The notes under the pieces are model-generated. The model ran no database searches and was not told the DNA's origin. It saw only the letters and a list, made by a program, of their open reading frames with translations. The translations under genes and the position numbers were made by a program. A stretch of DNA of 8,177 nt from a virus. Lineage: Duplodnaviria; Heunggongvirae; Uroviricota; Caudoviricetes. Below, piece after piece: positions 1,630 through 7,858 of the stretch (the stretch's first letter is position 1; each line of letters begins with the position of its first letter). The stretch is taken from the IMG/VR virus record IMGVR_UViG_2690316153_000010, one strand, 5' to 3'.

Positions 1630-2019
1630 TCAGGCGGCTGCACCCGCCGTTTTCTCGTACTTACTGATAGTGATCTCGACCTTCCCTTTCGGGATAACCG
1701 GTCCCCACTCCACCAGCATTCTTTTCACCTGACTGTCGTCTTCCCACACACCCGCATGGGTCAGGGCGTCAAACAGCGCCTTGTTATAGTTGTCCAGATC
1801 GCGGATCCGGTTATCCGGAGGAAACAACACGATCTCCACTGAAGCAGGTGCCGACGTTGGTTTCGGCAGACGACGTAACTGCTCAACTATTGCTGCGCAC
1901 GCCGCGCTCTGGAATTTGCGCCCCGCTGCGCTTATCAGACTCTTACCAGCAAACGCCCCTTTGTTGGGGTGTCGCCAGTACGTGTTCACGCTGGGCGGGA
2001 AAGGCAAGATCAGCTTCAT
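1630..2019 (-). CDS. rusA: RusA-family Holliday junction resolvase (copy 2)
   Basis: 129-aa ORF differing from copy 1 at 2 residues (E31A, I45V). Same motifs. ATGA overlap with the upstream LexA-like gene. Confidence 0.88.
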   Translation of the reverse strand: MKLILPFPPSVNTYWRHPNKGAFAGKSLISAAGRKFQSAACAAIVEQLRRLPKPTSAPASVEIVLFPPDNRIRDLDNYNKALFDALTHAGVWEDDSQVKRMLVEWGPVIPKGKVEITISKYEKTAGAAA

Positions 2020-2342
2020 ACTTTCAGGCCCCTCTCATGTAACCAGTGGGCTGCACGCAGCCTGGCGTTTTCCTCACCGGCAAGCAGTGCGCGGATAATC
2101 CCGACCGCCTCGCTGTCGTCGTCCTTCACCGCGGTATGAAGAGTTATCCCCCGGGCCACGCCACGCTTTATCGTGATGACGCCTTTTTTCTCCAGTGCGC
2201 GAAGATGCTCCACCGCTGCATTCACCGAACGGTATCCCAGCATGGTTGCCACCTCCTGATTGGTTGGCGGAAAGCCACGTTCTTGCTGGTAAGAAATCAG
2301 CATATCCAGCACCTGCTGCTGGCATTGAGTTAACGTCGTCAT
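2016..2342 (-). CDS. LexA N-terminal DNA-binding-domain-like protein with no S24 peptidase domain
   Basis: 108-aa ORF. Residues 4-66 (LTQCQQQVLDMLISYQQERGFPPTNQEVATMLGYRSVNAAVEHLRALEKKGVITIKRGVARGITL) align with the LexA winged-helix domain ([65 protein letters not shown]). No Ala-Gly cleavage site and no Ser/Lys dyad. ATGA overlaps at both ends. Confidence 0.7.
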   Translation of the reverse strand: MTTLTQCQQQVLDMLISYQQERGFPPTNQEVATMLGYRSVNAAVEHLRALEKKGVITIKRGVARGITLHTAVKDDDSEAVGIIRALLAGEENARLRAAHWLHERGLKV

Positions 2343-2992
2343 GCCGCCATCTCCCTGACCAGTTTTTCCGCCTGCTGGCGAACCTGCGCCAGAAAGGCCT
2401 CACCACATGCCTCAAGTTCATCGCGCCCGATGTAGCTGATTGCCGGTCCCTTCCGGGTCTTGTCGAAAACAGCAATAGCACCAGCGAAGAAAGCGCCTGT
2501 CGGCACCTGCTTCTCGTCCTTCGGGATAAACCAGGCTGGCAGTTCAAAACCAATACGCCCGCGAATAAAAGCAATATGGTCTGCATCTTCCGGCCACCAA
2601 ACTTCGCTGGTGGCAGCTTTGATCAGGAAAACATAGCGCCCGCCTTTATCACGCATGGCACTGGCATGCTTCATGATGTAACGCATGCCGGTGATGTATT
2701 GCCCCTCATGCTGACTGGCGCGGCTGTACGGGGGATTACCAAAGGCAGCACCTTTAAGCTCCGCAAGACGTTCTGACCAGTCATGCGCCAGCGCGTTGTC
2801 TTCCGCCGTGTAATACGCGGCGCATTTGGCGTTATCACCATCAGTAAACAGATCCAGAACAAACGGGCCAAACAGGGTGTTAATTCCCCAGAAAATGTTG
2901 TCCGGCGTGCGCCACTGATCGCCCACTTCCTTCAGTTCATGGGCTGGTTTGTTCCGCAGCTCCACCAGCGCCTGGCAATATTTATTACTCAT
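2339..2992 (-). CDS. Phage Dam-like N6-adenine DNA methyltransferase (copy 2)
   Basis: ORF 2339-3025 trimmed to MSNKYCQ at 2992 by comparison with copy 1 and the TAATG overlap with the upstream stop. 4 amino-acid differences from copy 1. NPPY motif present. Confidence 0.8.
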   Translation of the reverse strand: MSNKYCQALVELRNKPAHELKEVGDQWRTPDNIFWGINTLFGPFVLDLFTDGDNAKCAAYYTAEDNALAHDWSERLAELKGAAFGNPPYSRASQHEGQYITGMRYIMKHASAMRDKGGRYVFLIKAATSEVWWPEDADHIAFIRGRIGFELPAWFIPKDEKQVPTGAFFAGAIAVFDKTRKGPAISYIGRDELEACGEAFLAQVRQQAEKLVREMAA

Positions 2993-3480
2993 TAAGCCCC
3001 CACGTAATTCCCTGACAGATACCACTCTTCACCCGATGCAGCGCGCTTGCTGCTTTTCCGTAAACACCGCTCACGACGCGCAAGAAAATTGTTTCGCTCT
3101 TGCTGGGAGTGGCTTTCACGGAATGCCGCCATCCACACCGTTGCAGCACGACGGTATAAGCCCCTGGACTCCAGTTCTTCCGCCTGGCGGGTCAGGCACA
3201 AAATCACCCGGGGATCGTTAGTGCCGACATAGAAATTGCGCACAGGTCTGGATTCACGAACTGGTTGCGGTTCCGGCTCCTGCGGTATCTCAGTCAGCCG
3301 CGGGAAATGTCTGCGTGTATCCCCTTCACAACGGTGAGCCACACGCCCACTCTGACGTAACTTGCTTGCTGACTGCAGAACGCGCTGTCGTGAGTAACCT
3401 GCAAAAGCATCCGCAATGTCTCCGGAAGTACACCCCGGATGGGCTTCAATGAATTTCTGAACGTCATTCAAAAGACTCAT
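2992..3480 (-). CDS. Hypothetical regulator, possibly PerC-family-like
   Basis: 162-aa ORF (track ORF 2992-3486 trimmed to MSLL, since the upstream stop is at 3483-3485). The segment AEELESRGLYRRAATVWMAAFRES...ERNNFLARRERCL resembles the PerC-family motif as I recall it. Family assignment is tentative. Confidence 0.5.
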   Translation of the reverse strand: MSLLNDVQKFIEAHPGCTSGDIADAFAGYSRQRVLQSASKLRQSGRVAHRCEGDTRRHFPRLTEIPQEPEPQPVRESRPVRNFYVGTNDPRVILCLTRQAEELESRGLYRRAATVWMAAFRESHSQQERNNFLARRERCLRKSSKRAASGEEWYLSGNYVGA

Positions 3481-3482
3481 GA

Positions 3483-4424
3483 TCACCCCCTGAATCCTGC
3501 CGGGATCTGGCTGTAGTCCACGTTGTCGTAACTGGCTTTGAAGTACGGGTCTTCGCGTTTTTCGGTGTACGTGCTGACGGACGGCGATAAGCGCAGGGAA
3601 AGCTCATCCCATTTTTCCCGCAGCTTCGACGGGCTGAGCACGTTACGGCACCAGAACGGATCGCGACTGACGCGGCTGTACATCTCGCAGATTTGTTTAT
3701 GAGTACGACCATCCTGCACACACATCAGGCGAATTTCGTTTGCCCAGGCTGTCCAGTTCGGTTCTTTGGGACGAACCACCTCGCCGTCACATTCGGCGGC
3801 ATGCTCGTACAGGGCGATGATTTTTTTCCAGAGCCACTGTGCGCAGGTCAAATCATCCTGCGTCCCCCACTGGCGCTTTTTAGGGCTGAATACAACCGCA
3901 TCAGGATGGCGAGTTAAAAAATCCTGTTCAGCCGTCTGCGTGTCCGGTTGCGAAGCGTCCGGACGAGAAGTTTTTTTATCTGACGGATCATGTTTTGATT
4001 TTACTGACGGATCCCCACCAGATTCTGACGGGTGAAAACCCGCTTTTTTGCCAGATTTCGACGCATCAAATTTTGACGGGTCAGATTTTGATGCGTCAGA
4101 TTTTGACGGGTCAGAATCTGACAGTTGAGAAAATGCCGCTGCCTGAAGCTTCGCAACGTTAAGCTGATAAACATTCGACGCATTGCGGTTACCCTGGCGA
4201 CGCGCCCTACGCGTTAACCAGCCTTCTGCTTCCAGCCGTGCGATAGCCGTTCTGACGGTACTCATCCCCGCGCCAATCTGGCGGGCAATGGTTTCAATTG
4301 ATGGCCAGCACACACCTTCGTCATTACTGAAATCAGCCAGGCGGGCCATAATTGCCACGCTGGATAATTTCATGCCTGATGCAGCGCAACCATCCCATAC
4401 ATAGCCGGTTAATTTAGTGCTCAT
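3483..4424 (-). CDS. Replication initiator-like protein: N-terminal HTH/winged-helix domain, low-complexity DPSKS repeat linker, C-terminal tail shared with the KilA-N gene
   Basis: 313-aa ORF. N-terminal segment (GYVWDGCAASGMKLSSVAIMARLADFSNDEGVCWPSIETIARQIGAGMSTVRTAIARLEAEGWL) looks like the HTH domain of phage replication initiators. Internal tandem DNA repeats resemble lambda O-type iterons. Position downstream of cro/cII-like genes fits. Confidence 0.65.
   Translation of the reverse strand: MSTKLTGYVWDGCAASGMKLSSVAIMARLADFSNDEGVCWPSIETIARQIGAGMSTVRTAIARLEAEGWLTRRARRQGNRNASNVYQLNVAKLQAAAFSQLSDSDPSKSDASKSDPSKFDASKSGKKAGFHPSESGGDPSVKSKHDPSDKKTSRPDASQPDTQTAEQDFLTRHPDAVVFSPKKRQWGTQDDLTCAQWLWKKIIALYEHAAECDGEVVRPKEPNWTAWANEIRLMCVQDGRTHKQICEMYSRVSRDPFWCRNVLSPSKLREKWDELSLRLSPSVSTYTEKREDPYFKASYDNVDYSQIPAGFRG
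3975..4127. repeat. Iteron-like 15-bp tandem repeats (consensus AGATTTTGACGGGTC, core TGACGG); candidate origin of replication inside the initiator gene
   Basis: Five contiguous 15-bp units at 4053-4127, plus three degenerate copies at 3975-3989, 3996-4013 and 4021-4035 interspersed with A/T runs. In the coding frame they give the pentapeptide repeat DPSKS/DASKS. Confidence 0.6.
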
Positions 4425-4772: not shown

Positions 4773-5365
4773 GCGTTAGTTTCTCCACAGTCACGACACG
4801 CCACGGCGCCCGGAGCTGCACACTCGCGGGCGTCATTACTTTCTGAAATGCAAAAAATTTTGTAGACCAGTGCTGCATGCTCCTGCAGCTTCGAAATTGA
4901 GAGGTACAGCTCGTCGTTAATTGCTGTCTTCTCATGCGGTTCCACTACACCGTCTTCAATTGCTGAACGAATCTGTTTTGAATAACTGCCGATCTGTTCA
5001 ATGACTTCCAGCAGGCGCTGGTTAATATCGGCGTTGTCCACATCCTCGACGTCAGGAAGAGACACAAAGACGCCATTTGCAGACTGCGCCACAGCGTCAG
5101 CAATGAAGTGAGTTCCACCAGCACGTTGCAAAATCATTGCCCATCCCAGCGGGAAAATCTGATCGCCATCGGCACGAAGGCGGTTAAATAATGCGTTCTC
5201 TGTTACATCCAGCCAGTCAGCTGCTTCAGCGTAACCACCCGGCAACTTTGCGATAGTTTTTCTGACAGCTTTCACGTACCACTCAGGCTGTTTTTCTACT
5301 TTCCAGTGATGCTTACCCACGGTTAGCCTCATCGTTCTGTGGTTTCTGTTAATCGATTTATCCAT
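4769..5365 (-). CDS. CII/YdaT-like regulator (positional cII equivalent)
   Basis: ORF 4769-5434; start uncertain (candidate ATGs at 5365, 5377, 5332), chosen to limit overlap with cro. HTH-like segment [22 protein letters not shown]. Lies directly downstream of the Cro/YdaS-like gene. Family assignment by recollection only. Confidence 0.5.
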
Positions 5366-5558
5366 TAGATTTTTCATAAAGCTCAGGTTTAAATGGCAAC
5401 CGTCCGCAAGTTCTATATGCAGCTTCTGCTGCACGTCCTTTTGGAATTAACTGGCCCGGACGGTTTCGCCACTGATAAACGGCTTCAGTTGTTATGCCGA
5501 AAAAAGCAGCAACTTTCTCAATACTGCCGAAGTAGCTTTCGATATCGTCAGTTGTCAT
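5358..5558 (-). CDS. Cro/YdaS-like HTH regulator
   Basis: 66-aa ORF transcribed divergently from the repressor. GGAGGG RBS 4 nt upstream of the ATG. HTH-like segment SIEKVAAFFGITTEAVYQWRNR. Confidence 0.7.
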   Translation of the reverse strand: MTTDDIESYFGSIEKVAAFFGITTEAVYQWRNRPGQLIPKGRAAEAAYRTCGRLPFKPELYEKSNG

Positions 5559-5655
5559 ACGCCCTCCAAACTAAGTTTTGTTAGATGCTAATTACAAATC
5601 TATCTTTGGTCAATAAAAACTAAGATTACTTAGCGATTAAAGAAATGGTGCTCCT
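5559..5655. promoter_or_regulatory. Divergent immunity promoter/operator region (pR for cro, pRM for the repressor) with CTAA-N6-TTAG operator palindromes
   Basis: Operator-like sites CTAAGTTTTGTTAG (5571-5584) and CTAAGATTACTTAG (5620-5633), plus overlapping TTAGatgCTAA (5581-5591). Minus-strand -35 TTGACC (5608-5613) and, after a 17-bp spacer, -10 TAGCAT (5585-5590) upstream of cro. Confidence 0.5.
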
Positions 5656-6282
5656 ATGGAAACGGTTGGTCAGCGTATAAAAGCTCTGAGAAGAGTTACC
5701 AGAACGTCCCAGAAAGAATTGGGTAAATTTTGTGGAGTAAGCGACGTTGCTGTGGGGTACTGGGAGAAAGACATCAATACCCCTGGCGGGGAGGCACTTT
5801 CGAAATTAGCGAAGTTCTTCAATACGTCAATAGATTACATTCTTTACGGTGCTGAGTTTGAAGGCAAACTCGTCACAAACATGCGCAGAGTTCCTGTAAT
5901 ATCGTGGGTTCAGGCTGGGCAGTTTACTGAGTGCAGGGCAGCAGAAGTGTTTAGTGAAGTGGACAAGTGGGTAGATACATCATTAAAGGTTGGTGATAAC
6001 TCATTTGCATTAGAGGTTAAAGGTGACTCCATGACTAACCCTAATGGCCTCCCAACAATACCAGAAGGCGCAACAGTGATTGTAGATCCAGATGCAGAAC
6101 CTCGTCATGGAAAAATAGTCATCGCTCGACTTGATGGAACAAACGAAGCTACAGTAAAAAAATTAGTCATCGATGGCCCTCAAAAGTTTTTAGTGCCATT
6201 AAATCCTCGGTATCCCAACATCCCTATCAATGGTAATTGCCTTATCATTGGTGTAGTCAAAGGAGTTCAATACGAACTCTAA
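5656..6282 (+). CDS. cI-like prophage repressor: N-terminal XRE-type HTH plus C-terminal S24 (LexA-like) autopeptidase domain
   Basis: 208-aa ORF. HTH at the N-terminus, Ala-Gly cleavage site in WVQAGQF, catalytic Ser in KGDSM and Lys in TVKKL. Divergent from cro. Confidence 0.9.
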   Translation: METVGQRIKALRRVTRTSQKELGKFCGVSDVAVGYWEKDINTPGGEALSKLAKFFNTSIDYILYGAEFEGKLVTNMRRVPVISWVQAGQFTECRAAEVFSEVDKWVDTSLKVGDNSFALEVKGDSMTNPNGLPTIPEGATVIVDPDAEPRHGKIVIARLDGTNEATVKKLVIDGPQKFLVPLNPRYPNIPINGNCLIIGVVKGVQYEL

Positions 6283-6304
6283 GACCTCTCTTCTCTAACT
6301 AAGG

Positions 6305-6337
6305 CACCGAACCAAGAAAAGTTTGGTGTTTTCTCTT
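6305..6337 (+). terminator. Candidate intrinsic terminator downstream of the repressor gene
   Basis: Stem CACCGAAC (6305-6312) pairs with GTTTGGTG (6321-6328) including one G-U, with an 8-nt loop, followed by TTTTCTCTT. Confidence 0.35.
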
Positions 6338-6364
6338 GCCATGATAACTAAGTTAAGTTAGATT
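6336..6364 (+). promoter_or_regulatory. Candidate early-left promoter (pL-like) with overlapping operator (OL-like)
   Basis: -35 TTGCCA (6336-6341), 17-bp spacer, -10 TAGATT (6359-6364). The operator CTAAGTTAAGTTAG (6348-6361) has the same CTAA-N6-TTAG architecture as the cro/cI intergenic sites. Confidence 0.35.
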
Positions 6365-6447
6365 TTATATCAAAGATAACGAACAGGCAGGACGCCCACG
6401 AAGTAGCCGCCTGGGGCATATGAAGTCCAGGATGATTCGTTAGCAAC

Positions 6448-6471
6448 AAAAAAGCGCCCTACAGGACGCTT
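6448..6471 (-). terminator. Intrinsic terminator for the minus-strand gene 6510-7001
   Basis: On the minus strand: AAGCGUCC, loop UGUA, GGGCGCUU (8-bp GC-rich stem with one G-U), then a U-tract (plus-strand A-run 6448-6453). Lies about 40 nt past the stop codon. Confidence 0.55.
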
Positions 6472-6472
6472 A

Positions 6473-6485
6473 GCTCTTTAACAAT
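6473..6485 (+). promoter_or_regulatory. boxA-like antitermination motif (GCTCTTTAACAAT)
   Basis: 13 of 13 match to the core of the E. coli rrn boxA as I recall it (TGCTCTTTAACAATTTA). Plus-strand, downstream of the candidate pL and just after a hairpin. Confidence 0.4.
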
Positions 6486-6501
6486 CTGGATATCCACAAC
6501 A
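6483..6501. repeat. Left arm of a 19-bp inverted repeat flanking the gene 6510-7001
   Basis: AATCTGGATATCCACAACA; its reverse complement TGTTGTGGATATCCAGATT matches 7044-7062 at 18 of 19 positions. Core TGGATATCCA is itself palindromic. Confidence 0.6.
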
Positions 6502-6509
6502 GTAGTAAT

Positions 6510-7001
6510 CTACAGATTGCCGTTAAGTTTTCTGGACAACTCCTCAATGGATGGAGGCGATACGTAATCCGGATTTTTATTCATCAGAAACTTATTTTCA
6601 CAGTGGAGGCACCTGCTTTTATGAAAAAGCTCATCTTCGCTAACCGGGAATGGTTGAAGTATCGATACTATCTTTTGTCCAAAACATTTTGGGCAAAGAT
6701 GCATGGTTATGCTGCCACCGTTCACGATTACCTCCTTCGAGTATACAAAAGTACCCGACTCAAGTTGGTTAAGGATATAGCCTTCCGTCTGAGCCTCAAA
6801 GTTTTCGAATTCTGCAATTTTAGCTTTGAGAGAAGCATTTATTTCTTGATAAGAGCCCACCAGTTCAACGAGAGACACGCATTCGCGCTGAATAGACGCA
6901 AGCTTTGAGTTCAGCTCACCAATAGCCGCATTTACTTCAGCTTGAGTTTTTGCCTCGTTCATTAGTTTTGCAATCTGGGCTGTTTCACGAATAGCCGTCA
7001 T
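6510..7001 (-). CDS. Hypothetical coiled-coil plus zinc-ribbon protein (moron in the rexAB-equivalent position); function unknown
   Basis: ORF 6510-7289 trimmed to the ATG at 7001 (163 aa); an alternative GTG at 7025 has an AAGAG RBS. N-terminal heptad-like helical region, then CPKC and CLHC about 20 residues apart. AT-rich relative to flanks. Own terminator; opposite orientation to neighbours. Confidence 0.6.
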   Translation of the reverse strand: MTAIRETAQIAKLMNEAKTQAEVNAAIGELNSKLASIQRECVSLVELVGSYQEINASLKAKIAEFENFEAQTEGYILNQLESGTFVYSKEVIVNGGSITMHLCPKCFGQKIVSILQPFPVSEDELFHKSRCLHCENKFLMNKNPDYVSPPSIEELSRKLNGNL

Positions 7002-7043
7002 TGCTGCCGTTAATTCAGCGATCACATTGAATACTCTTATTGT

Positions 7044-7062
7044 TGTTGGGGATATCCAGATT
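7044..7062. repeat. Right arm of the 19-bp inverted repeat flanking the gene 6510-7001
   Basis: TGTTGGGGATATCCAGATT, an inverted match to 6483-6501. Sits 19-40 nt upstream of the candidate start codons of the minus-strand gene. Confidence 0.6.
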
Positions 7063-7072
7063 AACCGAATCC

Positions 7073-7093
7073 TTGTTGTTGGGGAATAACCAG
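7073..7093. repeat. Direct-repeat copy of the right inverted-repeat arm
   Basis: TTGTTGTTGGGGAATAACCAG versus TTGTTGTTGGGGATATCCAG at 7040-7059. The 13-bp core TTGTTGTTGGGGA is perfect in both, 33 bp apart. Confidence 0.5.
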
Positions 7094-7312
7094 GTCCACC
7101 TCGCCTGATGTGGCTAAAAGCAGGCACATAACAGCTAAGTATTTTCAACCAGAGAGAATCCTTAGCGTTGTGGTGAATGCGGCTCAGCGCACGCGGGTTA
7201 AGGTTGAGGCTGACAGTCGACCTTCTGTGGATACCCACCCGCCTGGTGTGCAACCTTCGCCAGGCACCGGGAGGCACCCGGCACCACAACTTTATGCTGT
7301 GTGTAGTCCTGG

Positions 7313-7359
7313 CGGTACCAGTTTGTACCCTTGCTTCCGGCTGGTACCGTCCTTTTTTG
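7313..7359 (+). terminator. Terminator-like hairpin in the GC-rich untranslated leader of the early-left operon
   Basis: CGGTACCAG (7313-7321) pairs with CTGGTACCG (7341-7349) around a 19-nt loop, followed by TCCTTTTTT (T-run 7354-7359). The large loop makes this tentative. Confidence 0.3.
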
Positions 7360-7495
7360 CAAAACAGAGAAGAGCATCACCGGACGACGGGCTCATAACC
7401 CAATCCATCCGGGCGGCTGCCACCGCAGGTGTTCTTCTCTGTTTTGTGGAGAAACCAACCGACCTTGCAGGGTCGATATGATGAGGAGCAGCAAA

Positions 7496-7858
7496 ATGGC
7501 TAGCGAACGCAGTACTGATGTGCAGGCATTTATCGGGGAGCTGGACGGCGGCGTATTTGAAACCAAAATCGGCGCAGTTCTCAGTGAGGTCGCTTCCGGT
7601 GTGATGAACACGAAAACCAAAGGGAAGGTCTCACTCAATCTGGAAATCGAACCGTTTGATGAGAACCGTGTGAAAATCAAACACAAACTCTCATATGTTC
7701 GCCCAACTAACCGCGGGAAAATTTCCGAAGAAGACACCACCGAAACGCCGATGTATGTCAATCGCGGTGGTCGCCTGACTATTCTGCAGGAAGACCAGGG
7801 ACAATTACTGACTCTTGCCGGTGAACCTGACGGAAAACTCCGCGCAGCAGGTCGTTAA
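7496..7858 (+). CDS. Hypothetical early-left protein (120 aa, hydrophilic, acidic)
   Basis: ORF 7331-7858 trimmed to the ATG at 7496, which has a GAGGAG RBS (7484-7489) 6 nt upstream. No arginine-rich N-terminus, so not N-like. Confidence 0.6.
   Translation: MASERSTDVQAFIGELDGGVFETKIGAVLSEVASGVMNTKTKGKVSLNLEIEPFDENRVKIKHKLSYVRPTNRGKISEEDTTETPMYVNRGGRLTILQEDQGQLLTLAGEPDGKLRAAGR

Follow-up and report, generated by a model that had tools for sequence, protein, structure and literature searches.

Stand-alone boxA elements are known to act at rRNA operons, at suhB and at CRISPR arrays, and the boxAs of phages are usually treated as parts of N-dependent nut sites. This raises the question of what a boxA of the rRNA-operon (rrn) type might be doing in the early-left leader of a lambdoid prophage that has no visible N gene. 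The case is posed by a stretch of 8,177 nt from a caudoviricete (the window; IMG/VR record IMGVR_UViG_2690316153_000010), which spans the immunity and early regions of a lambdoid prophage of the SfV/ST64B type and in which an earlier note had pointed out a boxA-like motif beside a hairpin. Between 5560 and 7500 the window is 100% identical to prophages that occupy the argU/intD site in several E. coli genomes.

The motif, GCTCTTTAACAAT, lies at 6473–6485 on the plus strand and is the sole match in the window; its 12-nt core (GCTCTTTAACAA) spans 6473–6484, and a 17-mer (GCTCTTTAACAATCTGG) extends to 6489. It was recovered in 0 of 200 dinucleotide-preserving shuffles and has an analytic chance expectation of ~2.4e-4 (16.3 kb, both strands), from which we conclude that it is not a chance match. 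The gamma-proteobacterial functional boxA consensus GYTCTTTAANA (Baniulyte et al. 2017, PMC5725501) is satisfied by GCTCTTTAACA at 6473–6483, which is likewise the single match in the window. All 13 bases agree with the boxA of the E. coli K-12 rrnH leader (TGCTCTTTAACAATttatcag; longer form gcaacTGCTCTTTAACAATttatcag), and the closest match is found in the T7 early leader, at 17/17 with GCTCTTTAACAATCTGG. The identification in the earlier note of a 13-nt rrn-type boxA at this position therefore held. The note had also judged the motif closer to the rrn form than to the lambda nut boxAs: the rrn side of this comparison stands, at 13/13 with rrnH. The nut boxAs of P22 and phage 21 have the same GCTCTTTAAC form.

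The position and strand of boxA were considered relative to a predicted early-left promoter (PL), using the following features.

5564–5633, between cro and cI: OR operators, two copies of AACTAAG-N-TTAG, from a repeat search.
6336–6364, plus strand: candidate PL (TTGCCA, 17 nt, TAGATT), sigma-70-like in a promoter scan.
6379–6440, plus strand: L1, a structured leader RNA of 62 nt, with an outer stem (6379–6385/6433–6440) and a hairpin (6410–6414/6427–6431).

A third copy of the operator (6341–6361; AACTAAGTTAAGTTAGAT at 6346–6363), 89% identical to the OR copy at 5569–5586, overlaps this promoter-like site, and a short way beyond it, from 6378 onwards, the sequence becomes homologous to that of phages with other immunity types. 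This is as expected just past a PL start site and places boxA ~100 nt into the presumed early-left transcript, on its sense strand. The motif is thus a full-consensus boxA on the strand predicted to be transcribed from PL, and the placement of the element on the leader transcript in the earlier note is consistent with this.

No N system was found with it. An N-like gene was not found in the window, and from Q (quuD) to int (intD) in the identical prophage L002 there is neither an N annotation nor a small arginine-rich sense open reading frame (ORF); yfdP, the first annotated gene of the early-left operon, and the moron that lies antisense in the leader match no N-like family, only families without assigned function. 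With regard to boxB, no conserved local hairpin occurs 3' of boxA or the 17-mer, where the downstream sequence differs between cassettes, and with regard to nutR, neither a second GYTCTTTAANA nor a match to GCTCTTNA is present on either strand of the window, including 5.5 kb of the right operon. The earlier note had seen no N-like gene and no arginine-rich first early-left protein, an observation that now extends from Q to int in the identical prophage; its alternative, an N gene outside the window, was contradicted over the same interval. As neither the window nor the early region of the identical prophage contains an N-like gene, any action of boxA must be N-independent.

BoxA does not stand by itself but is one element of an ordered frame, which runs from an A-run and hairpin through boxA, a left repeat arm and an antisense moron to a right repeat arm.

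6448–6471, minus strand: intrinsic terminator of the moron, stem 6452–6459/6464–6471, its U-run the complement of 6448–6453.
6483–6507, plus strand: left arm, AATCTGGATATCCACAACAGTAGTA, reading AATCTGGATATCCACAACAGTAG from A6483.
6510–7025, minus strand: moron, 171 aa, with a coiled coil and a C-terminal CxxC...CxxC, antisense to PL transcription (RefSeq WP_000559922.1).
7038–7062, plus strand: right arm, TATTGTTGTTGGGGATATCCAGATT.
7072–7094, plus strand: the right arm again, as a second, direct copy, CTTGTTGTTGGGGAATAACCAGG, which is conserved in every cassette family.

The hairpin (AAGCGCCC-TACA-GGACGCTT, 6452–6471) is preceded by A6 at 6448–6453 and followed directly by boxA. In the minus-strand RNA the stem has 8 bp, one of them U.G, with U6 after it (−12.1 kcal/mol). 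The hairpin is positive in a terminator scan and lies 38 nt beyond the stop codon of the gene at 6510–7025, as an intrinsic terminator at the 3' end of a gene should; the earlier note was right to assign it to the moron on the opposite strand. A C.A mismatch interrupts the stem in the plus-strand RNA (−7.5 kcal/mol), and after it stands AGCUCUUUAAC instead of a U-run. A variant from Klebsiella has a UUCG loop on the minus strand. When the hairpin was scanned for as a pattern by itself it recurred in many unrelated contexts without boxA; it is a generic terminator, and alone is not diagnostic of the frame. The moron protein belongs to PHROG 1244 (E = 9e-60), a family without assigned function, and has homologs in Klebsiella, Citrobacter and Kosakonia. 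Within the moron, a codon-aligned antisense ORF (6603–6908, plus strand) is open in many homologs, and its internal ATG at 6621 has a GGAGG 11 nt upstream; the ORF is probably an artefact of codon usage.

The two arms can form a long-range duplex (6483–6507 with 7038–7062) with a predicted energy of −36.8 kcal/mol, compared with −20.9 ± 2.5 for shuffled partners. The left arm begins at A6483 and so overlaps the 13-nt motif by 3 nt, as had been claimed. The second copy at 7072–7094 is a candidate alternative pairing partner, or a candidate part of the moron promoter or 5' untranslated region (UTR). Comparable repeats, starting 0–2 nt into ACAATCTGG and with a partner 430–820 nt downstream, were found as 29 distinct arm variants; in 22 of 25 families an arm pairs better with its own partner than with a non-cognate one, and in one clade several bases have changed together on both sides (left GATGACT with right AGTCATC).

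This layout resembles that of an rRNA leader. In rrnH, the sequence that immediately follows boxA (TTTATCAGACAATCTGTGTGGGCAC...) is complementary to spacer sequence adjoining the 3' end of 16S (−57.9 kcal/mol for the duplex), and the order in the prophage of hairpin (6452–6471), boxA (6473–6484) and, from 6483, the 5' arm of a payload-enclosing helix is the order in rrnH. A boxC (GU-rich, UGUGUGGG) was not found after boxA; the window has AATCTGGATATCCACAAC there, which shares only AATCTG with ACAATCTGTGTGGGCAC of rrnH. In rrn operons the boxA-bound complex has been proposed to help form the RNase III processing stem of 16S (PMC8632103).

Downstream of PL, three blocks can be distinguished: L1 (6379–6440), a variable cassette (6444 to ~7098) and an element resembling STnc100 (7137–7360). 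In SfV, mEp460 and ST64B the cassette is of another kind or absent; the hairpin, boxA and arms are missing together in these phages, while L1 and the STnc100-like element are kept. Since such relatives keep the leader RNA without boxA, conservation must be read per cassette and not per phage. Read in this way, the conservation of boxA that the earlier note had proposed to check among related prophages holds wherever the cassette occurs and fails in SfV, mEp460 and ST64B, and the motif is not a component of the conserved leader. By these comparisons boxA is part of a swappable frame that travels with a class of cassettes. The hairpin-boxA-arm segment occurs in 791 of 5426 complete E. coli genomes (~15%), in Klebsiella, Citrobacter and Kosakonia, and in phages of two different immunity types.

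Within these cassettes, boxA is conserved beyond its flanks. A hairpin-only scan yielded 26 distinct contexts with L1 and hairpin, in which the 12-mer was perfect in 18, replaced by GCTCTTTAAAAA (which still satisfies GYTCTTTAANA) in four, substituted as GATCTTTAACAA in one and absent in two; the bases beside boxA (the hairpin loop, the single base before G1 and the distal arm) vary freely. In a Klebsiella phage with an unrelated leader, the A-run, the stem, the boxA core and the start of the arm are kept, with the flank preserved through AATCT and TCTGG changed to TCTAG. Homologs anchored on the moron protein in Citrobacter (62% aa identity) and Kosakonia (55%) carry the 17-mer GCTCTTTAACAATCTGG exactly, with different hairpin loops and flanks; this search of genome contigs is unbiased for the motif and, at two loci only, too small for statistics. 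The right-hand side of the frame is highly conserved across unrelated morons. A transposon or miniature inverted-repeat element (MITE) as the source of the inverted repeat was considered and dropped, as in every case examined the frame lies in a lambdoid early region, for the most part directly behind PL, and does not enclose a transposase.

The 17-mer also occurs outside this frame. An identical GCTCTTTAACAATCTGG is present in the T7 early leader (NC_001604, ~nt 813–829), between promoter A3 and gene 0.3, and in the early leader of a T7-like Erwinia phage. At least 120 IMG/VR contigs carry it, most commonly in the hairpin-boxA-arm frame; other settings are ~20–40 nt after consensus sigma-70 promoters, before phage tRNA genes and beside sequences resembling put stem I. 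In the promoter-proximal contexts examined, the 17-mer is in sense orientation to the nearby promoter, which speaks for a function in the plus-strand RNA. In one contig (L052, 6290–6480) a consensus sigma-70 promoter is followed ~25 nt downstream by the 17-mer and then by phage tRNA genes, an untranslated payload; in others (L100, 1205–1260; L128; L022) GAACGGCGCGACTTTAAACCATGCGTCGG, which resembles put stem I, is followed directly by the 17-mer in place of put stem II. Two loci (L015, L051) have the boxA-arm unit after a different, non-terminator hairpin. A literature search gave nothing relevant on the function of boxA in prophages or T7, nor on the 12-mer string.

Taken together, these observations lead us to lean towards boxA being functional and N-independent in the plus-strand RNA. 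Between boxA and the first recognised sense-strand gene lie ~1–1.1 kb, taken up by the antisense moron and the STnc100-like element.

7137–7360, plus strand: STnc100-like RNA (Rfam RF02076, 40.3 bits, E = 3.5e-6, under the gathering score of 47).
7496–7858, plus strand: yfdP, first annotated sense gene of the early-left operon (RefSeq, PHROG 204).

Once repressor leaves PL, polymerase would transcribe L1, the weak plus-strand hairpin and boxA, and then ~1 kb before yfdP. BoxA would serve as the RNA site of the host NusB-NusE(S10) dimer, acting without phage N, and NusB/NusE on boxA together with NusA, NusG and SuhB would give a Rho-resistant polymerase, as in rrn operons and CRISPR arrays, which provide the precedent for N-independent boxA antitermination (PMC7665894, PMC8632103). 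Transcription from PL would thereby survive the untranslated antisense passage. In a second step, suggested by the layout, in which the 5' arm starts inside boxA as does the 16S processing stem in rrn, the boxA-tethered complex may also bring the 5' arm together with the partner that lies 550 nt further on, forming the 25-nt long-range duplex; the RNA antisense to the moron would then be looped out, and RNase III might excise it. This step of stem delivery and processing we put forward tentatively, as the less likely part of the proposal.

The genes enclosed by such frames bear on this reading. At least five unrelated minus-strand genes were found in them, including the PHROG 1244 family, a two-transmembrane 'MTRDD' family and a family of 148 aa that follows a small sense ORF. 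When L1 loci were clustered and the first downstream ORF of at least 100 aa was called, boxA preceded that ORF in 16 of 33 antisense clusters and 1 of 24 sense clusters (Fisher p = 3e-4), with heuristic ORF calls. Several points weigh against the reading, three of them on this association: the frames share ancestry, so that related clusters are being counted; several of the 'antisense' calls are structured non-coding RNA of ST64B-type leaders, mislabelled by ORF calling; and at least three antisense cassettes (L173, L188, L212) are without boxA. The phage type as such does not need boxA, to judge from SfV, mEp460 and ST64B. In the arms, transition mismatches in the plus-strand RNA are more often G.U (40) than A.C (17), an excess that is confounded, since C and A predominate in the left arm while the right arm is the less variable of the two, and that is kept only as a hint. 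The C/G ratios of the plus-strand RNA (1.1–1.4) are just mildly like those of Rho utilisation (rut) sites, and if the ORF at 6603–6908, with its GGAGG and its ATG at 6621, were translated, there might be less need for protection from Rho. Complexes of the rrn type are known mainly for resisting Rho and not intrinsic terminators, so that boxA leaves unexplained how polymerase passes the intrinsic terminator at 7311–7358 in the STnc100-like element. As relatives without boxA face the same terminator, boxA cannot be the general antiterminator of the operon; L1 is a better candidate for that role. Finally, boxA can act in the opposite sense, as in suhB and hisG (PMC5725501, PMC12360218).

The competing explanation that fares best, although we consider it unlikely, is that the 17-mer has no role in PL transcripts and is a passive part of the frame, conserved as a linker for cassette exchange by homologous recombination. 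BoxA does always travel with the hairpin and arms and is missing with them in SfV, mEp460 and ST64B, and the conservation of the right-hand frame across unrelated morons is how a recombination linker would look. A linker would not, by contrast, account for the sense-oriented 17-mers of unrelated contexts (the early leader of T7, leaders close to promoters and positions upstream of tRNA genes), for the exact match to a 12-nt host protein-binding consensus that the tolerated GCTCTTTAAAAA still fits, or for the free variation of the bases on either side.

Slightly less probable again is a negative boxA like those of suhB and hisG, by which Nus factors would repress a nearby sense ORF or promote Rho termination, so that PL transcription would be attenuated ahead of a collision with the moron. 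Both repression and enhanced Rho termination by boxA are documented (PMC5725501, PMC12360218), and the commonest cassette type (L003, SfIV) has a sense ORF of 68–73 aa ~45–60 nt after boxA. Against this, ~1 kb of the window beyond boxA is free of annotated sense genes, the early-left genes further downstream (yfdP to int) have to be expressed, and elsewhere the motif precedes untranslated payloads (tRNA genes, antisense genes).

We also consider it improbable that the conserved sequence acts on the minus strand, where the complement of boxA and the left arm makes up the 3' UTR of the moron mRNA and could take part in 5'-3' UTR pairing or form an Hfq-bound 3' end. The hairpin is clearly optimised on that strand (with the UUCG loop in Klebsiella), the arms pair in minus-strand RNA at slightly weaker energies, and the right arm adjoins the ribosome-binding region of the moron; a minus-strand role nevertheless leaves unexplained the match to the boxA consensus in plus orientation and the plus-oriented copies behind promoters in other phages, and in L015 and L051 the boxA-arm unit follows a hairpin that is not a terminator. 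A lambda-type nutL served by an N encoded outside the window or by another prophage is highly improbable, and the N-dependent nut site was rejected, because, although boxA occupies the nutL position and has the GCTCTTTAAC form of P22 and 21, the three defining features fail (no conserved 3' hairpin as boxB in sequence that varies between cassettes, no N or small arginine-rich ORF in the interval between Q and int, and, as nutR, no further boxA within the 5.5 kb of right operon in the window) and relatives lack the site altogether.

Beside the N-independent boxA that we favour, the leader contains a second element of possible regulatory function, L1. It has 118 distinct homologous sequences and is common to SfV, SfII, SfIV, ST64B, mEp460 and mEp237 and to phages of Klebsiella, Citrobacter, Pantoea, Yersinia, Pectobacterium, Providencia and Aeromonas. 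RNAalifold, applied to 29 representatives, predicted 15 pairs, and 10 of these show compensatory double changes, with outer-stem variants such as CGAAC/GATTCG, CCACC/GGTGG and GTCATC/GATGAC, and hairpin variants such as CCTGG/CCAGG, CCGGT/ACCGG, CCCCA/TGGGG and CTACC/GGTAG, around a nearly invariant core (AGGCAGGACGCCCACGAAGUAGCC). These data make L1 a candidate for cis-acting regulation or antitermination of the early-left operon, and for the antitermination function that is missing in SfV/ST64B-type phages. A homology of L1 with the put elements of HK022 was rejected: its similarity to putL and putR is limited to short strings, its fold is different, and its nhmmer profile misses HK022. In one IMG/VR contig (L219), a sequence closely matching HK022 putL (GTCGAACGGCGCGACTTTAAACCATGCGTCGG...) lies ~30–100 nt after L1, so that L1 and put can coexist in one leader. 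In ST64B-type phages (L006, ST64B, 2560–2720; L139, L176, L192, L210), L1 is followed by a GC-rich segment with complementary ends (GTGTCTTCGGGAGGGG ... CCCCGCCCGAAGATAC), which is probably another structured RNA and which ORF calling mistakes for an antisense gene.

The STnc100-like RNA ends in an intrinsic terminator (stem 7311–7352, T-run 7353–7358; −23.3 kcal/mol, z = −3.2), and the element is kept in all relatives examined (SfV, mEp460, ST64B), just upstream of yfdP. RefSeq draws a frameshifted pseudogene over 7137–7360, and an over-long ORF is annotated there in SfIV. Rfam searches at E <= 1 gave no match for boxA, the hairpin or L1, the only hits being the STnc100-like element and a spurious miRNA. 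The source of the latter is a set of direct and inverted repeats resembling TCAAAATCTGAC at 4049–4123 (minus strand), inside an O-like replication gene, which are probably origin iterons. Upstream of PL, the immunity region contains three further features.

5358–5558, minus strand: cro.
5656–6282, plus strand: cI-type repressor (Pfam HTH_3 and Peptidase_S24, S24; PHROG 4; LexA family protein in RefSeq).
6301–6337, plus strand: intrinsic terminator of the cI transcript, a 12-bp stem followed by UUUUCUCUU (−13.4 kcal/mol, z = −2.9).

SfV has an annotated terminator at the position equivalent to the last of these. Elsewhere in the window, 45–1084 and 1630–3025 are a near-identical duplication with RusA and N6-adenine methyltransferase genes, and a chimeric KilA-N/replication-protein ORF (1179–1643) lies between the copies; the duplication is missing from an otherwise identical prophage in CP028757.

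A literature search found no description of an N-independent boxA in prophage early operons, nor of this frame, and a 2025 review names rrn, lambda N, hisG and suhB as the only boxA contexts, the CRISPR case coming from PMC7665894. If the reading were true, a boxA in N-less prophages (those of ~15% of complete E. coli genomes), placed before an antisense gene within a long-range repeat, would widen the range of Nus-complex targets and explain how morons inserted backwards within an early operon are tolerated. A broader and more speculative proposal, which we think rather doubtful, is that a portable 'rrn-mimic' frame, in which a consensus boxA stands between a hairpin like boxB and a long-range stem that begins inside it, lets lambdoid prophages lodge lysogen-expressed genes backwards in the early-left operon: upon induction the Nus complex would shield PL transcription from Rho and hand the 5' arm to its 3' partner, the antisense segment would be looped out or excised by RNase III, and L1 would replace N operon-wide. 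Were this so, the frame would join rRNA and CRISPR arrays as the third class of N-independent Nus targets in nature. At ~650 nt, it offers a compact natural system for studying the RNA-delivery and chaperone role that has been proposed for the rrn antitermination complex, here in a setting other than ribosome biogenesis. The locus also reveals L1, an uncatalogued and strongly covarying leader RNA.

Compared with known systems, the locus resembles HK022, with its RNA-only antitermination by put, in being that of an N-less lambdoid phage with L1 at the putL position directly after PL. It differs in that neither boxA nor L1 is a put element, L1 having a closing stem and an internal hairpin, whereas put has two adjacent stems, stem II with an AGGAU loop (PMC9378689). 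The nut sites of lambda, P22 and 21 likewise lie just downstream of PL and have a boxA that recruits NusB/NusE, as is predicted for the prophage site; the prophage, however, has no boxB, N or nutR, and its order of hairpin then boxA reverses that of lambda. The T7 early leader shares the identical 17-mer GCTCTTTAACAATCTGG and is also transcribed by host polymerase, but no long-range repeat was detected there and the next gene is sense-oriented and translated; the T7 17-mer is presumably followed by the RNase III site R0.3. The boxA upstream of CRISPR arrays (Stringer et al. 2020, PMC7665894) is, like that of the prophage, a stand-alone element near the start of a long untranslated transcript, for which a block of Rho without a phage protein is proposed or shown, and which appears to have been acquired repeatedly in different contexts. 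The prophage boxA differs in that it lies in an early operon and is combined with an inverted repeat and an antisense gene; experimental support exists for the CRISPR element. The closest parallel in layout is with the E. coli rrn leader (boxB hairpin, boxA, boxC/16S stem), on which the rrn transcription antitermination complex (rrnTAC) comprises NusA, NusB, NusE, NusG, SuhB and S4. RNase III cleavage and the participation of S4 and SuhB are known from rrn and would be putative in the prophage frame; the payload of the latter is the antisense of a 0.5-kb protein gene and not rRNA, its arm is unrelated to boxC except for AATCTG, and its 5' hairpin doubles as the terminator of an opposing gene. 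The two nevertheless share a boxA identical at 13/13 positions with a hairpin directly 5' of it, and a long-range duplex whose 5' arm lies at the 3' edge of boxA and which encloses an untranslated payload, all without N.

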